Source of the DNA: a virus
Lineage: Duplodnaviria > Heunggongvirae > Uroviricota > Caudoviricetes
Virus record (IMG/VR): IMGVR_UViG_2872698443_000003
Strand: one strand, 5' to 3'
DNA length: 20,548 bases
Under the pieces are notes generated by a model that made no database searches, was not told the DNA's origin, and was given only the letters and a program-made list of their open reading frames with translations. Within the stretch, counting starts at the first letter, position 1. Each line of letters begins with the position of its first letter. The translations under genes and the position numbers were made by a program. This document shows, one piece after another, positions 9,669 through 20,548 of this stretch.

Positions 9669-9815
9669 ATGACAAAACAACTCAGTCCTTACCAGGACAA
9701 AATTCACAAACACATACTACGTGATCGCTTCCTGTCCAGCTTCAAGCAGCCTGGTCGATTCCGGGCTGAGTTGGAAAAAGTGAAGCTGATGCAGAAGGAG
9801 AAAGGTCATGAGTAA
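9669..9815 (+). CDS. Small hypothetical protein, 48 aa, between cII and the replication initiator
   Basis: Manual translation ([48 protein letters not shown]); AGGAG 6 nt upstream; overlaps the next start by 8 nt. Confidence 0.4.
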
Positions 9816-10668
9816 TCTTGCAACCGTAACACATTTAAGGCCTTCACAACGGCCTGTGGAGCGTCGTGTGGCAGAAGTTGAAGATGGTTATACCCGTCTT
9901 GCAAATGCCCTGTATGAAGAGCTTATCGGCGCAGATTTAACGAAAAATCAGAGCAAGGTTGCCCACGCCATATGCCGTAAAACATACGGCTACGGTAAAA
10001 AGATGGATCGCATTTCTGATAGTCAGTTAGCTCAAATTACCAGGCTGCCAAGACAGAAGGTAAACAAGGCCAAGAATGAGCTTATCGCGATGAAGGTTAT
10101 CCTTCGCGAAGGCCAGCAAATCGGGCCTAACAAGAACATCGAAGAATGGCAAATCGAAGGGTGTCACTACTCTGGTGATAATGTCACTGCATTGGTGACA
10201 AAAAGTGTCACCAAAACGGTGACAGCGCTGTCACCAAAACAGGGACACACAAAAGAAACTATTACAAAAGAAAAAAGAAATAATAAAAACACTATGTCCG
10301 AAAGTGTTCGGACGGAGTGTGAAAAATCATCTGACCGTCACGAAGAAACCGACAAGGCATTCGAGGAAATATTCTGGTGTGCAGGCATGCGGAAAGCCGG
10401 GAAGAAAAACGCGGCTTCGGCATTCAGAACACAGTTCAGGGAATGGCGTAAAACTACCAGGGGTACGGCAAGCGAGTTTGCCACGATGCTGGCAGAAGAC
10501 ATCGCATGCAGGAATGGTAAGCAGTTCGGATTCGACAGGTTGTTACCATCGAGCTACCTGAACGGTCAACGCTGGAACGACGAGAAGCCAGAAACTATTC
10601 AACCACAATCCAAACCATCATCCGCAATCACCGTATCGAAAACTGGCTACGTGTTTTTCGACAGGTGA
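9808..10668 (+). CDS. Replication initiator / replisome organiser (O-like), 286 aa, with origin iterons inside the gene
   Basis: Track ORF at the O position after cII; internal GTGACA/TGTCACC iterons plus AT-rich tract. Confidence 0.6.
10160..10296 (+). repeat. Candidate replication origin: iterons (GGTGACA-N5-TGTCACC, GGTGACA-N4-TGTCACC plus half-sites) followed by an AT-rich tract at 10250-10296
   Basis: Seen directly: ...GGTGACAAAAAGTGTCACCAAAACGGTGACAGCGCTGTCACCAAAACAGGGACACACAAAAGAAACTATTACAAAAGAAAAAAGAAATAATAAAAAC. Confidence 0.6.
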
Positions 10669-10671
10669 ACC

Positions 10672-10779
10672 ATGAAATCAAAAATCAAATCGCTACTGGT
10701 CGCTGGTTATAACCACGGCTGGTTAAGTATTTCGTTTGTCGATTTCTGGTTTAAAAATCTCAATCTGAGGGAATCATGA
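10672..10779 (+). CDS. Micro-ORF, 35 aa, hydrophobic (MKSKIKSLLVAGYNHGWLSISFVDFWFKNLNLRES)
   Basis: AGGTGA upstream; stop overlaps the primase-helicase start (ATGA at 10776-10779). Confidence 0.3.
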   Translation: MKSKIKSLLVAGYNHGWLSISFVDFWFKNLNLRES

Positions 10780-12656
10780 CGCCAAGTGAACTTAGCGACC
10801 TGCTTTGGGCGCAGGTTGACAGGGTGGCTCCGCACCTGTTGCCAAACGGCAAGAAAGAGGGGCATGAGTGGGTTGCCGGTAACGTCAACGGTGACAAGGG
10901 AAACAGCCTTAAGGTCAACCTTAGCGGCAAGAAAAAATGGGCTGATTTCGCTGAGGGAGACGGCGGTGACATGCTTGATTTGTGGATGGCATGTCGTGGA
11001 ATTAACCTGCATCAGGCTATGCAGGAAGCGAAAGCCTTTCTCGGAATCAAGGATGACGATCACCATTTCGATGCCAAACGTGAGAAGAAATTCTCCAGAC
11101 CTGACCGCAAGAAAATCGCCCGCTACGTTACCAGAACAGAATCCCATCTTGAGTACCTGCAATCGCGTGGCATATCGCCAGAAGTCGTAAAGCGCTACGA
11201 GGTTGTCAGCGGCAAGGTGTGGAAGGGAGAACGAGAACTTGATGCACTGGTGCTTCCGTACAAACGCGATGGTGAGTTGTTGCAGGTCAAGCGAATCAGC
11301 ACTGAGCGCCCGGACGGGAAGAAAGTCATTATGGCAGAAGGTGATTGCGAACCTTGTCTGTTCGGATGGCAGGCTCTGGACGCTGGCGTGAGGGCGGTTG
11401 TGCTTTGCGAAGGCGAAATTGATTGTATGAGCTATGCGCAATACGGCATCTCGGCGTTATCCGTGCCGTTTGGTGGAGGGAAAGGCGCTAAGCAACAGTG
11501 GATTGAGTTTGAGTACCACAACCTCGACAGGTTTGAGGAAATATTCATCTCGATGGACGTTGATGATGTTGGTCGTGAAGCCGCAAGGGAAATCGCAAGC
11601 CGACTCGGTGAACATCGTTGCCGTCTTGTTACTCTGCCGTACAAAGACATCAACGAATGCCTGATGAACGGTGTTACCGAGGATGAAATCTGGCAGTACA
11701 TCGGCACGGCATCCTACTTCGATCCTGAAGAACTCTACAGTGCGCGAGAGTTTTACCAGGACACTATCAACGCTTTCTACGGCAAGCAGCAGTATCTGTT
11801 TAATCCACCGTGGGAATCTCTGGCAGATAAATTCCAGTTCCGTGAGGCAGAGTTGACGCTGGTCAATGGTGTGAACGGTCACGGAAAAACGGAGGTTGTC
11901 GGGCATATGGCACTTGAGGCAATGCGTCAGGGTGTGAAGACGTGCATCGCGTCACTTGAGCTGAAGCCTGGTATTCTCCTTAAGCGCCTTACCCGTCAGG
12001 CGACGTGCTGCAAGATGCCGCCAGTGCTGGAAATTGACTCTGCATTTAAATTTTATGACGAAAGACTTTGGGTGTTTGGTCTGACCGGAACGGCGAAAGC
12101 CGACAGGCTGATCGAAATATTCGACTACGCTCGCCGCCGATACGGGATCCAGTTATTCATCATCGACAGCCTGATGAAATGTGGCATAGGCGACGATGAC
12201 TATAACGGGCAGAAGGCGTTTGTTGACTCGATTTGCGACTTCAAAAACAAAACAAACTCCCACGTCATTCTCGTTACTCACTCGCGAAAAGGAGACAGCG
12301 AAGAAAAACCAACCGGGAAAATGGACGTAAAAGGCTCTGGAGCGATAACAGACCTGACAGACAACCTTTTCATCATCTGGCGTAACAAGGCTCGCGAGAG
12401 AGCGTTACAGAGAGTTCAGAGTGGTGAAAAGATGTCAGAGAAGGACGAACAGCTACTGGCATCTCCGGCATCTGTTTTGATGCTTGAAAAACAACGTAAC
12501 GGCGAAGGTTGGGAAGGTGGTGTCCCGTTGTTCCTTGACGAGCAATCGCACCAGTTCCTGCAACTTGAATCAGGATCGCCATATAGCTACATCGCCAATA
12601 TGCCGAAATCGGAATATGACGAGGCGTGGCGACAGGAAAACGTGACGGAGTATTAA
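10776..12656 (+). CDS. Bifunctional primase-helicase (Toprim domain plus DnaB/RecA-like helicase core), 626 aa
   Basis: Toprim-like VVLCEGEIDCMS and ISMDVDD; Walker A NGVNGHGKT; Walker B-like LFIIDSL; occupies the lambda P position. Confidence 0.7.
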   Translation: MTPSELSDLLWAQVDRVAPHLLPNGKKEGHEWVAGNVNGDKGNSLKVNLSGKKKWADFAEGDGGDMLDLWMACRGINLHQAMQEAKAFLGIKDDDHHFDAKREKKFSRPDRKKIARYVTRTESHLEYLQSRGISPEVVKRYEVVSGKVWKGERELDALVLPYKRDGELLQVKRISTERPDGKKVIMAEGDCEPCLFGWQALDAGVRAVVLCEGEIDCMSYAQYGISALSVPFGGGKGAKQQWIEFEYHNLDRFEEIFISMDVDDVGREAAREIASRLGEHRCRLVTLPYKDINECLMNGVTEDEIWQYIGTASYFDPEELYSAREFYQDTINAFYGKQQYLFNPPWESLADKFQFREAELTLVNGVNGHGKTEVVGHMALEAMRQGVKTCIASLELKPGILLKRLTRQATCCKMPPVLEIDSAFKFYDERLWVFGLTGTAKADRLIEIFDYARRRYGIQLFIIDSLMKCGIGDDDYNGQKAFVDSICDFKNKTNSHVILVTHSRKGDSEEKPTGKMDVKGSGAITDLTDNLFIIWRNKARERALQRVQSGEKMSEKDEQLLASPASVLMLEKQRNGEGWEGGVPLFLDEQSHQFLQLESGSPYSYIANMPKSEYDEAWRQENVTEY

Positions 12657-12685
12657 ATGACCATCTACATCACTGAGCTAATAAC

Positions 12686-12717
12686 AGGCCTGCTGGTAAT
12701 CGCAGGCCTTTTTATTT
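12686..12717 (+). terminator. Rho-independent terminator after the primase-helicase
   Basis: Stem AGGCCTGC/GCAGGCCT with 8-nt loop, followed by TTTTTATTT. Confidence 0.6.
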
Positions 12718-12732
12718 GGGGGAGAGTAAATC

Positions 12733-12939
12733 GTGGCTGAGTTTATGCTCGTCGCATTCAAATGCGTTGGCGTTGGATGGATTCTTCTGACGTTTTTTAT
12801 TGTTCTGCATAGCTACATTCGTCTTGTGAATGACGGTAAAGACCCATGGTATACGTTGTTTGGCGCTGCATTTGTCTGGGTGATTATCGGTGTTATGCCT
12901 GTCGCTGTAGCAAAAATGGCGTGGCGTTTTGTGAGTTGA
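12733..12939 (+). CDS. Small membrane protein, 68 aa, two predicted transmembrane helices
   Basis: Track ORF, GTG start with GGGGGAGAG upstream; hydrophobic stretches LVAFKCVGVGWILLTFFIVL and FGAAFVWVIIGVMPVAVA. Confidence 0.5.
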   Translation: MAEFMLVAFKCVGVGWILLTFFIVLHSYIRLVNDGKDPWYTLFGAAFVWVIIGVMPVAVAKMAWRFVS

Positions 12940-12956
12940 ACTGAGGGTAAGTATCG

Positions 12957-13313
12957 ATGGACGAATCAAGAAAGCAGTTTGAGGAATACGTTGCCAAAAA
13001 ATTGAGATTACCATTCGAGATGATAACCGAGGCAAGAAATGGTGATAGGTACTTCGCATTTTCAAGCATGGATATTCGTCACTCCTTAAATGAGTGGTGG
13101 ACTTTATGGCAGGCATCGCGAGCAGCTATTGAACTGGATATCGACTGGCCAGAATCGAATGACGACTTTTGGAAAGATGGTGAAGAAGGTGCTTATGCGA
13201 TGGGTTATGAGGATGGGCGTGACAAAACGGTAATTGCAGTAATGAAAGCTATCAGAGCCGCTGGAATTAAAGAGAAGAATTTCGATGAAGCAAACAATAT
13301 TCCTCCGAACTAA
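12957..13313 (+). CDS. Hypothetical acidic protein, 118 aa, at the position lambda uses for ren
   Basis: Track ORF; GAGGGT upstream. Confidence 0.5.
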   Translation: MDESRKQFEEYVAKKLRLPFEMITEARNGDRYFAFSSMDIRHSLNEWWTLWQASRAAIELDIDWPESNDDFWKDGEEGAYAMGYEDGRDKTVIAVMKAIRAAGIKEKNFDEANNIPPN

Positions 13314-13695
13314 GCAACAACAGCAAGCCGCAATCAACGCCATCCTCGCAACACCACTCGATAAAGACAAGCCAGTCACCATCCGCATTACTGACTACAA
13401 GCGCAACCTTGACCAGAACGCAAAATTTCACGCGATGCTGGCGGATATCGCACGTCAGGTTCAATGGTGCGATAAGTGGTTAAAACCAGAACAATGGAAG
13501 GTTTTGTTGATTAGCGGTCATGCAGTGGCAACAAAGCAGGAAGCTGATGTTTTACCCGGCCTTGAAGGCGAATACGTCAACATTCGCGAAAGCAGCGCGC
13601 AGATGAGCGTGAAGCGTATGGCAAGTCTTATCGAGTACACAACAGCATGGGCTATTGGTCAGGGTGTCAGATTTACCGACAGGAGGTACGAATGA
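13285..13695 (+). CDS. ninB: NinB (Orf) recombination mediator, 136 aa
   Basis: Track ORF; similar in length and in the central ...LDQN... region to lambda NinB as recalled. Confidence 0.7.
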
Positions 13696-16191: not shown

Positions 16192-16467
16192 GTGGCTTCT
16201 GTTTCTATCAGCTGTCCCTCCTGTTCAGCTACTGACGGGGTGGTGCGTAACGGCAAAAGCACCGCCGGACATCAGCGCTATCTCTGCTCTCACTGCCGTA
16301 AAACATGGCAACTGCAGTTCACTTACACCGCTTCTCAACCCGGTACGCACCAGAAAATCATTGATATGGCCATGAATGGCGTTGGATGCCGGGCAACTGC
16401 CCGCATTATGGGCGTTGGCCTCAACACGATTTTACGTCACTTAAAAAACTCAGGCCGCAGTCGGTAA
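16192..16467 (+). CDS. insA: IS1 InsA, 91 aa
   Basis: [43 protein letters not shown]... recognised. Confidence 0.95.
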
Positions 16468-16889
16468 CCTCGCGCATACAGCCGGGCAGTGACGTCATCG
16501 TCTGCGCGGAAATGGACGAACAGTGGGGCTATGTCGGGGCTAAATCGCGCCAGCGCTGGCTGTTTTACGCGTATGACAGGCTCCGGAAGACGGTTGTTGC
16601 GCACGTATTCGGTGAACGCACGATGGCGACGCTGGGGCGTCTTATGAGCCTGCTGTCACCCTTTGACGTGGTGATATGGATGACGGATGGCTGGCCGCTG
16701 TATGAATCCCGCCTGAAGGGAAAGCTGCACGTAATCAGCAAGCGATATACGCAGCGAATTGAGCGGCATAACCTGAATCTGAGGCAGCACCTGGCACGGC
16801 TGGGACGGAAGTCGCTGTCGTTCTCAAAATCGGTGGAGCTGCATGACAAAGTCATCGGGCATTATCTGAACATAAAACACTATCAATAA
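16386..16889 (+). CDS. insB: IS1 InsB' transposase reading frame, 167 aa (expressed as InsAB' by -1 frameshift)
   Basis: Track ORF matches IS1 InsB as recalled. Confidence 0.95.
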
Positions 16890-16969: not shown

Positions 16970-17728
16970 GTGCTTGTAAAAACCAATACCAATAAAATTA
17001 GCTATGGTAACTCATATGAAAAAATTAATTTCCCGGGAGTTCAGATTCATGATTTTAACGCTATGGTTGAGACTTGGACATCATCTATATCAATAGATAA
17101 TCTTGTTATAAATGGTAGTGGTAGGTTATCTAGAATATCTAACTCATTTACATTTAATACGACATCATCGGATTCTCGCGTATTTGATTTTTGGCAGTAT
17201 ACATCTGATGGAGCTGCTGTTTGTAATATTTACAGAAATGAAATTAGCTCAGATTCTCAGTTTCATCATGATGGTACAACTATAGGAGTGGTGATACCAA
17301 TAGCAAATACCGATAATAAGACACTGCGAGTTGTTATTGATAAAAATGTTTTTAAATGTCAAGGGAAAGAAGTCACATTATCTTTCATGGCTGTAAATGG
17401 GTTGCCATCTGTTCAAACTAAAATTTCCGTGAACTTGATATTGAGCTATTCTTCATCATTAGGCGTTCAAAGAGTATATTCATTCGGTGAGTTTGATATT
17501 GGTAGTTCATGGGGGTTGAAAAAATTCACATTAGCAATACCTTTTGAAGGTCTTGTGTCCGCAAGCGATGCGAATGCTTATTTATCCTTTTCGCTTCCAA
17601 AATCACAAGAAGTAAACATCATCATAGCCAATGTTAATTTATGCAAAGGAAATGTTGCTGTGCAGGGGCCGAGTGATTTAAAGGATTGGGATTTACTATC
17701 TAGATCAATTGCATACTACGGTAGTTAA
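16970..17728 (+). CDS. Low-GC Ser/Thr/Asn-rich hypothetical protein, 252 aa; possibly the C-terminal receptor-binding part of a tail fibre or another surface-interaction protein, probably 5'-truncated
   Basis: Track ORF with GTG start; the frame is open upstream into the IS1 right end (no stop from 16772 by my reading); composition resembles fibre distal domains. Function not recognised. Confidence 0.4.
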   Translation: MLVKTNTNKISYGNSYEKINFPGVQIHDFNAMVETWTSSISIDNLVINGSGRLSRISNSFTFNTTSSDSRVFDFWQYTSDGAAVCNIYRNEISSDSQFHHDGTTIGVVIPIANTDNKTLRVVIDKNVFKCQGKEVTLSFMAVNGLPSVQTKISVNLILSYSSSLGVQRVYSFGEFDIGSSWGLKKFTLAIPFEGLVSASDANAYLSFSLPKSQEVNIIIANVNLCKGNVAVQGPSDLKDWDLLSRSIAYYGS

Positions 17729-17765: not shown

Positions 17766-19109
17766 TCATCTAACTTCTACTTTATATCGAACTCCGCGTC
17801 CAAGTAAGATAGAAATGAAAGATGACAAAATCATCAAGGCAATTAAGAACACGATGCTATCAAACATGTATGCCAAGCCTATAGGGGGAGACAGCATTAT
17901 TGCCAATGCCCTGCAATAGAAAGATGCTATGAAAGAAGAGTAGAATATATCGCTTCTTAATCTAATGTTTTTTGCTTTACATACACGACCAAGTATCCAG
18001 CCAAAAAATGCAGTCATGAATAAACCGCCGACAAAGCCAAAGTAAACATAACCAGCAAGATCAAAGTGACTTGTTGGCCCCCTTGCTACATCATCCCCAA
18101 GATACCATACCTTCCAAATCATTCTGCCAACATCATTGGCTGAGTAGTCATATCCAAGCATGTTTTGCATTATCCCATTCCCGGCTATATATCCGAATAG
18201 TTGTAGAAATGCATTTTTTACTTGCAACATGTCAATAACTGCATTTGGGAGTGAGAAGTAGTATGCGTCTCCATTTGCAAATATCCGCATGAATAACATT
18301 TCAACAACAACAGGGGCGTCCATGTAGTTTGATTTTGTATACCCTATTGCTGCTGAATTATATGATATTAGGAATAGCACATAAGCAACAAGAGATACGG
18401 ATATAATTAAAAAAACAACCGCACTTTTTATCGTTAGCCTTGGTTTACGACCTGTAAAAATATAAATTGCAATTATAGCAACTAGCAAATGCTCTAGGAG
18501 AGAAAGTTTTGCGCCTGAAACAAAAGACGCAATTATAGATATAATTATAGCTATAAGTGCTATTGATGCTCTTTTCAACCCTCTGGACTTTACTGCCATG
18601 ACAGAAAGATATCCAGTGAGCATCAGTCTTACAACATCAAGTATCCTTACGATAGCACCAAGACCTCTGTTTGCCTCAAACCTAGACTGTACAAAGGCAT
18701 CAAAAGATATACTTTTTATATATATTACCGTTAGTGATATATAAAATATTAGCAACAAATAGAATATTATTGATGAGTTTTTTTTGCATGTATTAAATAC
18801 CTTGTCAGTTGTTCCAAGTAGTCTAAATTTAGGTGTTCTATATGCCAAGTGCATAAACGAAGCCAATACAATCCAGTTTAGAATAATCATGTAGAACAAG
18901 TGATCAGGAATGTAGTTGTAATTCCATAGCATTAATACTATTGCGTAAGAAGTTCCAAATGTGAAGGTAAAATAGAAGTGTATTGGATCTATCACTCCTA
19001 CTGCCAGCTTCCTTACCGTCATGTAACATAAAACAGTTGTTACTGTAGCGTACAGTAAATACTCTGACCAATTTGAAAATATAAAATAAAAAAAGTCTAT
19101 ATCACTCAT
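17766..19109 (-). CDS. Polytopic inner-membrane protein, 447 aa, about 30% GC, Wzy/O-antigen-polymerase-like or GtrS-like; candidate lysogenic-conversion gene
   Basis: Hydrophobic segments throughout the track ORF; very low GC versus about 50% in the rest of the prophage; sits in the int-proximal slot where P22/KplE1-type phages carry O-antigen modification genes. Confidence 0.55.
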   Translation of the reverse strand: MSDIDFFYFIFSNWSEYLLYATVTTVLCYMTVRKLAVGVIDPIHFYFTFTFGTSYAIVLMLWNYNYIPDHLFYMIILNWIVLASFMHLAYRTPKFRLLGTTDKVFNTCKKNSSIIFYLLLIFYISLTVIYIKSISFDAFVQSRFEANRGLGAIVRILDVVRLMLTGYLSVMAVKSRGLKRASIALIAIIISIIASFVSGAKLSLLEHLLVAIIAIYIFTGRKPRLTIKSAVVFLIISVSLVAYVLFLISYNSAAIGYTKSNYMDAPVVVEMLFMRIFANGDAYYFSLPNAVIDMLQVKNAFLQLFGYIAGNGIMQNMLGYDYSANDVGRMIWKVWYLGDDVARGPTSHFDLAGYVYFGFVGGLFMTAFFGWILGRVCKAKNIRLRSDIFYSSFIASFYCRALAIMLSPPIGLAYMFDSIVFLIALMILSSFISILLGRGVRYKVEVR

Positions 19110-19390: not shown

Positions 19391-20548
19391 TCACTCAGGC
19401 TTTTCATCAAGCCAGTCCGCCCACCACTGCATCATTTCTCTGCGCTTATCGAGATACTGCGCATGGTTGTAAATACCGCGCACAGATCCGCCGTTGGCAT
19501 GTGCCAGTTGCATTTCAATAGCATCAGCAGGCCATTCGTTCTCGTTCATAATCGTGCTGAATTCATGCCTGAATCCGTGACCGCTTTCCAGACCCTCATA
19601 GCCGATTTGTTTGATCACAAGCAATACCGCGTTCTCGCAGATTGGCTTCTTCTTATCGTTGCGCCCGGCAAAAACAAACTCTGAGACTGGTTTGGTGATT
19701 GAGCTTAGCGTAGTGAGAAGTTCAACCACCTGGTCTGACATCGGGACCACATGAATTTTGCGTCCCTTCATCACACTGGCGTCGATGGTGATAATCCTGT
19801 TTTCAAAATCGACGTTCTTCCATAGCATGGAACGAAGTTCTTTTGTTCTGAGGGCTGTGTAGCGTAAAACTTTGGTTGCAATGAGCGATACGATACTTCC
19901 TGAAAATGTTGCCAGTGCTTTGTTGAATGCCGGGATCTGGTCTGCAGGAAGAAACGGGAAGTTCTTCTTGCGGTATCCCTTCATGGCGTCAGCAAGGTCA
20001 GGTGCCGGGTTATATTTAGCCCTGCCGGTGACAATAGCGTAACGGAAAACCTCGCCGCATCTTCTGCGGGCTTTATTTGCTCGCTCCATTGCACCGCGAT
20101 CTTCAAATCTGCGGATTACTTCCAGCAGTTGCATCGGCTCAATATCCTGAATTTCAAGGCCGCCGATGATAGGTAAAATGTCGTCATCAAACATTTTTGC
20201 AAGTTCATTTGCATAGCCTACTGACCAGACTTGCTTCTTGTGCTCGTACCATTCCTTGTAAATCGCACTAAATGAATTGTTGTTAGACGAAGCCTTTTTC
20301 GCCTTTACCGGATCGATGCCAACCGAGATGTCTTTCCTCGCAGTCCATGCCTTATCCCTTGCTTCCTGCAAAGTCATAAGCGGATATTTTCCGACGGTCA
20401 GGATTTTCTCCTTACCGTCAATCTTGTAGCGAAGCTGCCATACCTTTTTCCCGGATACAGGAACATAAAGGTACAGGCCATTACCATCGAGAAGGCGGTA
20501 TGGTTTTTCTTTCGGCTTTGCTGCTTCAATCTGCTTAACGGTGAGCAT
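19391..20548 (-). CDS. intS: P4-family tyrosine integrase (IntS-type, argW-specific), 385 aa; start codon is the last three bases of the window
   Basis: MLTVKQIEAAKPKEKPYRLLDGNGLYLYVPVSGKKVWQLRYKIDGKEKILTVGKYPLMTLQEARDKAW... matches K-12 IntS as recalled; catalytic R..HxxR..Y region present. Confidence 0.9.
   Translation of the reverse strand: MLTVKQIEAAKPKEKPYRLLDGNGLYLYVPVSGKKVWQLRYKIDGKEKILTVGKYPLMTLQEARDKAWTARKDISVGIDPVKAKKASSNNNSFSAIYKEWYEHKKQVWSVGYANELAKMFDDDILPIIGGLEIQDIEPMQLLEVIRRFEDRGAMERANKARRRCGEVFRYAIVTGRAKYNPAPDLADAMKGYRKKNFPFLPADQIPAFNKALATFSGSIVSLIATKVLRYTALRTKELRSMLWKNVDFENRIITIDASVMKGRKIHVVPMSDQVVELLTTLSSITKPVSEFVFAGRNDKKKPICENAVLLVIKQIGYEGLESGHGFRHEFSTIMNENEWPADAIEMQLAHANGGSVRGIYNHAQYLDKRREMMQWWADWLDEKPE

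Follow-up and report, generated by a model that had tools for sequence, protein, structure and literature searches.

We argue that the two small genes between the terminator tR2 and ninB in this prophage are separate, non-essential accessory genes. They would occupy a hypervariable cargo slot, be expressed as delayed-early genes and act independently of each other. We put the probability of this reading at roughly 60%. The window, by which we mean the whole stretch of 20,548 nucleotides that was analysed, covers the early regions of a lambdoid, P22/HK620-like E. coli prophage. The 801 bases around the locus are 100% identical in the S163-2 and TUM9754 chromosomes. The early-right operon runs in the order cro-like gene, cII, O-type initiator, primase-helicase, ninB, ninE, ninX, ninF, roi, ybcO, rusA, ninH, and the two genes, here called orf68 and orf118, lie upstream of ninB (Table 1). 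The first-pass annotation had described a 68-aa membrane ORF and a 118-aa acidic ORF with separate ribosome-binding sites between a terminator and ninB, and these coordinates hold; the terminator is a strong one. It was also right that the upstream gene is a primase-helicase, since Toprim/DnaB-like domains were found in it. A 29-nt overlap joins the end of orf118 to the start of ninB, with no terminator between the two genes.

Table 1. Features of the early-right operon around orf68 and orf118 (positions are those of the window)
Feature	Position	Strand	Description
O-type initiator	9808-10668		
Primase-helicase	10776-12656		Toprim/DnaB-like
'NinA'-type ORF	12658..12741	+	hydrophobic, 27 aa, MTIYITELITGLLVIAGLFIWGRVNRG; spans tR2 and overlaps the orf68 start; putative
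Intrinsic terminator tR2	12686..12717	+	stem 12686-12709, 8-bp GC-rich, 8-nt loop, then T run TTTTATTT; from a terminator scan
Ribosome-binding site	12718..12726	+	GGGGGAGAG; common to whatever gene follows tR2
orf68	12733..12939	+	GTG start; 68 aa, two transmembrane helices, PHROG 1165
Conserved linker	12877..12964	+	last 63 nt of orf68, intergenic ribosome-binding site and first orf118 codons
orf118	12957..13313	+	ATG start; 118 aa, acidic, PF26207 (Phage_phiTE_015), PHROG 343
ninB	13285..13695	+	Orf-family recombination mediator; Pfam NinB E 4e-54; fixed downstream border of the slot

The slot between tR2 and ninB

Where the locus lies relative to ren is worth considering in its own right. 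The two genes had been placed where lambda carries ren, and this does not survive comparison with other phages. The terminator upstream of orf68 is lambda tR2, with every base the same. From the NinA-like ATG through tR2 to GGGGGAGAG, the lambda ren-ninB intergenic region is identical to the window except for one base in the NinA-like ORF. The sequence of tR2 and the ribosome-binding site is also identical in HK620 and 933W, and the same terminator is annotated as tR2 in HK620 and Sf6. The tR2 stem is identical or has at most 4 substitutions in every locus where the search found a stem. In lambda, H-19B, the O26 prophages and 933W ren is upstream of tR2, while orf68 and orf118 belong downstream of it. 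H-19B and the O26:H11 prophages have P, ren, the same tR2 and then the orf68-orf118-ninB block, which means that Ren coexists there with both loci, although orf68 is interrupted by a stop. In 933W P, ren and tR2 are 5' of the PF26207 gene (the family of orf118), and orf68 is absent.

The acidic protein is unrelated to Ren as well. It was considered as a Ren homologue and rejected, as hhalign gave a probability of only 0.3% and there is no Pfam or PHROG link between the two. Ren is likewise small and non-essential and comes after the replication genes of the pR operon, but it has no sequence relation to orf118, its gene is 5' of tR2, and it travels with the lambda-type P gene. The window lacks ren because of this last property, since its prophage has a different replication module. 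All of these alignments indicate that the locus is the tR2-ninB cargo slot and not the ren position.

The upstream border of the slot is well conserved. The 27-aa NinA-type ORF matches phrog_5907 (E 1e-18); it is ninA in the HK620 annotation and gene 45, or boundary sequence bsq6, in Sf6. In the locus alignments this stretch is 86-100% conserved 3' of every type of replication gene, and by that pattern it is a conserved boundary between the replication module and the cargo. orf68 should not be taken for the P22/HK620 NinA of phrog_5907. It is a separate gene that starts inside the last codons of the NinA ORF. The ribosome-binding site that follows precedes ninB in lambda and orf68 in the window, and at least 7 different genes start 6-20 nt after it in the locus and lambda alignments. 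In lambda it drives ninB directly, so the lambda slot is empty.

A varied set of genes occupies the slot in other phages. Besides orf68, which comes in two alleles, the list holds the 108-aa Sf6 gp46 with its N-terminal transmembrane helix, small proteins of 60, 63, 66 and 90 aa with transmembrane helices, a basic DUF7301 protein, the basic 65-aa Sf6 gp47, PF26207 paralogues, HK022 gp60 / Sf6 gp49, and the Lar-like gene of 933W. About half of these roughly 12 families have transmembrane helices. The other cargo that was scanned falls in PHROGs without an assigned function, and the 60-aa and 63-aa membrane proteins have no PHROG match. Small membrane proteins that are unrelated to each other recur right after tR2. 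The nin region as a whole is a non-essential pool of 30-50 genes, mostly without assigned function (PMC8022706, PMC5630979), and its genes are dispensable in the laboratory (PMC5630979).

The two protein families

The physical character of both proteins is as the first-pass annotation claimed. orf68 starts with a GTG 6 nt after GGGGGAGAG. Its product has a pI of 9.0 and a GRAVY of 1.2, with hydrophobic stretches at about residues 5-30 and 39-62. A short conserved loop, RLVxxGKD, lies between helix 1 (about residues 5-30) and helix 2 (about 39-60), and the C-terminus, KMAWRFVS, is basic. The positive-inside rule suggests a hairpin with both ends in the cytoplasm (N-in/C-in). orf68 matches phrog_1165 end to end (E 5e-39), with residues 1-68 on profile positions 1-68 of 68, and therefore belongs to PHROG 1165. 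Other members are the unannotated ORF after ninA in HK620, to which orf68 is 94% identical, mEp213 gp58, mEp235 gp46, HK022 gp58 and Stx2 phage 86 orf70. At the E. coli S163-2 locus the protein is RefSeq WP_029701290.1, annotated as hypothetical. The family has 61 clusters at 90% identity, is restricted to lambdoid phages of Escherichia and Salmonella, and is nearly always exactly 68 aa long, down to 51% identity. The phages that carry it have podovirus, siphovirus or Stx-phage virion modules alike. PHROG 1165 has no Pfam entry, a PDB sequence profile search with orf68 gave no related structure, and the only Pfam match at E<=1 was a sub-threshold one to T4SS_pilin. As for the 60-aa membrane protein found in the slot instead of orf68, a comparison of the two rejected homology.

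The two main alleles of orf68 are saturated at synonymous sites over codons 4-47 (pS 0.78, pN 0.41), and dN/dS over the whole gene is 0.3-0.5. The end of the gene is a different matter. The linker that joins it to orf118 is about 100% identical in DNA, even where the alleles compared share about 50% identity elsewhere, and its synonymous proportion is 0.03-0.27 versus 0.78 in codons 4-47. The linker is probably a recombination junction, like tR2. By the same comparison the invariance of helix 2 is, as we read it, mostly an effect of the linker at the level of DNA.

orf118 starts with an ATG 9 nt after GAGGG and encodes a protein of pI 4.67, with 24 D+E versus 16 K+R. In RefSeq (WP_001341809.1) the protein is called at 81 aa, from an internal ATG at 13068 that lacks a ribosome-binding site. 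Members of the family share the N-terminal MDESRKQFE of orf118, so the 118-aa start at 12957 is correct and the RefSeq call is truncated. The protein matches phrog_343 (E 6e-31). A match to PF26207 is precomputed for the exact 118-aa protein and for all 120 homologues listed. The copy of Pfam that was scanned appears to lack the PF26207 model, as even homologues listed under PF26207 gave no match. Membership was established with hhalign instead, where a profile headed by orf118 aligned to phiTE_015 over 92 columns (probability 99.4%, E 1e-21). RefSeq itself calls one copy a "phiTE_015 family protein". Known members are phiTE gene 015 (the type), Sf6 gp48, 933W p31/L0091, HK022 gp59 and mEp213 gp59, and mEp235 has one too.

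An exhaustive profile search puts PF26207 at 440 clusters at 50% identity, spread over many genera. Among the best 150 of these 440 clusters all proteins are stand-alone, with lengths of 36-154 aa (most 80-140 aa), and no informative domain fusion was found. Three motifs make up the conserved scaffold of the family: N-terminal SRxQFExW, central WxxWQASRAAIE(L/V)(D/E)LP and C-terminal AIRAAGIKVK. Residues R5, F8, E9, W51, S54 and G103 are invariant. orf118 has all three motifs, is stand-alone, lies within 90-140 aa and shares the early-operon position of the family. In the alignments the scaffold frames two hypervariable segments. The second of these in orf118, LDIDWPESNDDFWKDGEEGAYAMGYEDGRDK (residues 60-90), has a net charge of -8 and five aromatic residues. 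This acidic insert, DIDWPE(A/S)NDDxWKDGEEGAYA, is found in one subfamily only, to which orf118 belongs, and it is absent from phiTE_015.

Two AlphaFold models of orf118 reach pLDDT 66 and 76. The better one is a small helical protein whose acidic loop has low confidence. It has no significant match in PDB or BFVD, and a PDB sequence profile search was also empty. Its weak structural hits had E 0.007-0.5, none of them under the 0.001 cut-off, and were to other phage proteins that are uncharacterised. The possibility that the acidic ORF is a known replication accessory protein was checked, and neither the profile nor the structure searches matched it by sequence or fold to any DNA-metabolism protein.

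The sequence evidence is that orf68 and orf118 are both real coding genes and not chance ORFs, because the PHROG matches are full-length, the length is kept, pN is below a saturated pS, and the N-terminus of orf118 is conserved. Other readings of the locus were tried. A 134-aa antisense ORF at 12712-13116 on the minus strand was rejected as a gene, as it matches no PHROG and its composition is unlike that of a protein. Long stop-free antisense runs are also present in other alleles of the locus. A non-coding RNA was rejected as well, with an Rfam scan that gave noise only.

Association and expression

The first-pass annotation treated the two genes as a functional pair, and the comparative evidence does not bear this out. 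The sample was 80 IMG/VR loci with a PF26207 gene, which are best-scoring matches and phylogenetically redundant. orf68 is present in 42 of these 80 loci (adjacent in 34) and absent from the other 38. If the high- and low-identity alleles of each gene are considered, all four combinations of orf68 and orf118 occur. Each gene is also found alone in known phages. HK620 and HK633 have orf68 and then ninB directly, without a PF26207 gene between them. In 933W and most Stx1 phages orf68 is missing and the tR2 ribosome-binding site is followed directly by a PF26207 gene.

The nonsense allele of orf68 is a further argument. In H-19B and in the O26 prophage of E. coli E2865, codon 15 of orf68 is TGA. 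The orf118 beside this broken gene is intact and is 97% (H-19B) or 100% (O26) identical to the copy in the window. Of 5426 complete E. coli genomes, 228 carry this allele of orf68, and about half as many, 116, have an exact match to the 61-nt segment with the stop. It must be noted that this nonsense allele may be decay within one clonal EHEC prophage lineage. The first-pass annotation also proposed a search for the pair as cargo in related prophages. Both genes are exchangeable cargo in many such prophages, but they do not travel as a fixed pair. From these distributions, orf68 and orf118 are not a system.

A looser relation is suggested by position. In 49 of 77 scorable loci of this sample a predicted membrane protein is encoded immediately 5' of the PF26207 gene, and it is not always orf68. 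A non-homologous 60-aa two-helix protein takes that place in 18 loci, and two loci (L016 and L045) each have two consecutive sets of a membrane gene plus a PF26207 gene. This recurrence could reflect a loose functional coupling, and in a redundant sample it should be taken as a lead only.

There is no promoter-like site on either strand between 12400 and 13800, where 2.2 are expected by chance. The scan covered sigma-70 consensus sites only, so weak or activator-dependent promoters would escape it. Neither gene has a promoter upstream and a terminator downstream of its own, as would a moron, a piece of prophage cargo that is transcribed independently. Without a promoter of their own, the genes are not expected to be expressed in the prophage state.

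The searches for known defence genes were also empty. PADLOC at E<=1 gave no family for orf68 or orf118, the Pfam scan gave no SieB, Imm or holin match for either, and nothing in the Pfam, NCBIfam and PADLOC scans was significant. An anti-phage defence role for either gene is, on these scans, unsupported. Literature searches by family names and accessions found no functional study of either gene, and searches on nin-region membrane proteins and lambdoid anti-defence screens gave none either.

Proposed roles, rival explanations and significance

The comparisons show that cargo is exchanged by recombination at conserved DNA junctions, the tR2 hairpin with GGGGGAGAG upstream and the start of ninB downstream, with the conserved linker in between. 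As a result orf68 and orf118 assort independently. We propose that both genes are transcribed only within the pR early-right operon, by N-modified RNA polymerase that reads through tR2. If transcription depends on N in this way, they are, like ninB, delayed-early genes of the lytic or induction phase. Such timing, and the fact that virulent phages also have PF26207, argue against a moron that protects the lysogen and favour roles in host interaction during lytic growth. The product of orf68 would be an inner-membrane helical hairpin that is active in lytic growth, most likely by binding a membrane component. Its nearest functional analogy is the T4 Imm type of early block to secondary DNA entry, without homology to it. 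orf118 would be a cytoplasmic protein in which a helical scaffold displays two hypervariable segments, one of which, in this allele, is strongly acidic and rich in Trp and Tyr. Its most likely activity would be to bind and either block or recruit some variable protein of the host or of a competitor, as part of host takeover or counter-defence. Neither protein would depend on the other. For orf68 we infer every step beyond 'membrane hairpin', and for orf118 every step beyond 'small acidic cytoplasmic protein'.

Following the idea of the first-pass annotation, both genes together, or orf68 by itself, might encode an effector of superinfection exclusion or abortive infection and so shield the lysogen or the infected cell from other phages. 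Small inner-membrane proteins such as T4 Imm, P22 SieA and HK97 gp15 are typical exclusion effectors, and orf68 is like them a small phage-encoded protein of the inner membrane. The slot is hypervariable cargo with transmembrane helices in about half of its roughly 12 families. T4 Imm is an early lytic gene, and an early Imm-like role would fit the position of orf68 in the operon. However, there is no PADLOC, SieB or Imm match, and orf68 has no similarity to Pfam or PADLOC models of T4 Imm, P22 SieA or HK97 gp15. SieA and gp15 are expressed from the prophage, which is not what the missing promoter leads one to expect of orf68. The two genes neither co-vary nor consistently co-occur, orf68 is a pseudogene in the 116 complete E. 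coli genomes, and PF26207 is present in a virulent phage. The mixture of virion modules that accompany orf68 also means that no single injection apparatus goes with the gene. We think it quite improbable that the genes are such effectors. A holin is the other known type of protein that orf68 resembles. Class II holins and pinholins, such as S21-68 with 68 aa and two transmembrane domains, have the same size and two-helix topology. But orf68 was not matched to any holin family, and its place is in the early-right operon, well away from the lysis cassette. A signal-anchor-release helix is rich in Gly and Ala, and the first helix of orf68 is not.

The main rival for orf118 is a role in recombination or replication, in which it would work with NinB/Orf as a translationally coupled accessory, for example in SSB or ssDNA loading. 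The genomic context is what makes this attractive. In 66 of the 76 loci with a scorable ninB start the PF26207 match ends between 25 nt inside ninB and 3 nt before it, so the two genes abut or overlap. In Hafnia prophages the PF26207 gene is directly before NinB, and on one metagenomic contig, from another lineage, it directly follows a lambda-P-like gene. In phiTE, a virulent rV5-like myovirus of Pectobacterium, the PF26207 member sits in a set of early and replication genes, with DNA polymerase, NinX-like and primase genes around it. The acidic-aromatic stretch DIDWPESNDDFW of orf118 also bears a loose likeness to the acidic C-terminal tip of SSB, a lead only. The family as a whole does not behave like a partner of NinB, however. 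No allele matching is seen, as its members go equally with two ninB alleles that share only 33-39% identity. NinB also does without any PF26207 gene in lambda, HK620 and P22-type phages. A Lar-like gene separates the PF26207 gene from ninB in 933W, and HK022 and Sf6 also have genes interposed there. The acidic motif is a property of one subfamily and not of the family, and the searches gave no link by sequence or fold to DNA metabolism. It is unlikely that orf118 is an accessory of this kind.

It could also be argued that both ORFs are evolutionary filler, held in place by linkage between recombination junctions and of hardly any selected use, or none, to the phage. In favour of this, orf68 has a widespread nonsense allele, dN/dS is no more than moderately low at 0.3-0.5, lambda does without both genes, and nin genes can be dispensed with in the laboratory (PMC5630979). 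Filler would not be expected to look like this, though. orf68 keeps its exact length, its hydrophobic pattern and the GKD loop motif even though its synonymous sites are saturated, and PF26207 is conserved over about 440 clusters (50% identity) in many genera, with its six invariant residues. We consider it very unlikely that the genes are filler.

Two separate accessory genes in an exchangeable slot is the reading we prefer. Both proteins belong to catalogued phage families, and the locus is ordinary lambdoid mosaic cargo. Our main corrections are that the slot follows tR2 and is not the ren position, that the acidic gene starts at the ATG at 12957 and not at the internal ATG used by RefSeq, and that the two genes do not form a system. 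The genes are not rare. Among the 5426 complete E. coli genomes, 228 have allele A of orf68 and 223 the orf118 allele of the window, with partial matches to the latter in 668. Shiga-toxin phages and the model phages HK620, Sf6, HK022 and 933W carry genes of these two families.

A bolder interpretation is that the stretch after tR2 is a hotspot of early lytic effectors directed against competing phages or host immunity, with orf68, at least 5 other membrane families and the PF26207 loops among them. This is doubtful, and we would not expect it to hold. If it were true, it would reveal an undescribed class of early exclusion or counter-defence factors common to temperate and virulent phages. If either protein proved to govern superinfection, recombination or the defence of the host, much of the lambdoid "dark matter" would gain an annotation in one step.

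The acidic gene and its neighbour orf68

RefSeq (PGAP) gives the acidic gene downstream of orf68, the gene for the two-helix membrane protein, as the 81-aa WP_001341809.1 (window 13068-13313). The start of this form is an internal ATG at 13068 with no ribosome-binding site. It also lacks the N-terminal MDESRKQFE of the 118-aa protein, which is kept across the family. The conservation of MDESRKQFE shows that the real form is the one of 118 aa (12957-13313) rather than 81 aa, and this bears out the length claimed for the acidic ORF in the first-pass annotation.

Codon 15 of orf68 is changed from GGA to TGA, a premature stop, in H-19B and in an O26 prophage (E. coli E2865). The neighbouring gene of the acidic protein's family (PF26207) is intact in both. 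The 61-nt segment of orf68 that includes this stop has an exact match in 116 of the 5426 complete E. coli genomes.

Features of the window and of the compared loci (L numbers; locus coordinates follow these, all others are window coordinates)
Feature	Locus	Coordinates	Strand	Remark
Alternative membrane cargo	L014, L016, L023, L045, L078	~2540-2973
Alternative membrane cargo	L028, L029, L069	2466-2792
Alternative membrane cargo	L084	2554-2754
Alternative membrane cargo	L086	2498-2770
Stop-bearing orf68	L001 (H-19B); L002 (E. coli O26 strain E2865)	2577-2783 in each		equivalent window codon 12775-12777
27-aa hydrophobic ORF MTIYITELITGLLVIAGLFIWGRVNRG		12658-12741	+	spans tR2 hairpin; phrog_5907 match
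Antisense ORF, 134 codons		12712-13116	-	overlaps orf68 and part of orf118 (acidic gene)
Weak terminator-like hairpin		12769-12794	+	inside orf68; 9 pairs, only 3 G-C, then T run
Linker, orf68 3' end through orf118 start		12877-12964		allele DNA identity
IS1 element		16192-16889		counterpart in E. coli S163-2 sits inside Q antiterminator gene
Phage head-binding (tailspike-type) protein, C-terminal part		16970-17728		directly after IS1
O-antigen polymerase gene		17766-19109	-
Integrase IntS		19391-20548	-

Cargo between tR2 and ninB

In other loci the interval between terminator tR2 and ninB is filled by unrelated proteins that are small (60, 63, 66, 90 and 108 aa) and predicted to lie in the membrane; no function is known for any of them. 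Two PF26207 paralogues occur in each of L016 and L045, and membrane proteins precede each paralogue. Small membrane proteins may be enriched directly 3' of tR2 in this phylogenetically redundant sample of loci. Where orf68 alleles share about 50% identity elsewhere, their linker DNA is about 100% identical, and this stretch is probably a second recombination linker besides tR2.

The 27-aa ORF across tR2 starts at or adjacent to the stop codon of the preceding replication gene, whichever type that is, and is annotated as ninA in HK620 and as gene 45 in Sf6. Its conservation may merely be that of the terminator, which leaves its translation in doubt. Stop-free antisense runs of 92-139 codons recur in divergent alleles. 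Since the 134-codon antisense ORF had no match in a PHROG scan and its composition is not protein-like, it is probably a by-product of sense-strand codon usage. The hairpin inside orf68 is probably a chance match.

The ends of the window

Left-end features (1-1229 and 1928-2128) were assigned by mapping coordinates onto the identical locus of S163-2. A LysR-type regulator gene carries an inserted IS3-family transposase, and a torI-type excisionase gene follows on the minus strand.

At the right end the window joins IS1 directly to the head-binding protein, whereas in S163-2 lysis and morphogenesis genes take up about 30 kb between these points. The prophage in the window thus has the look of a defective one, derived by IS1-mediated deletion.
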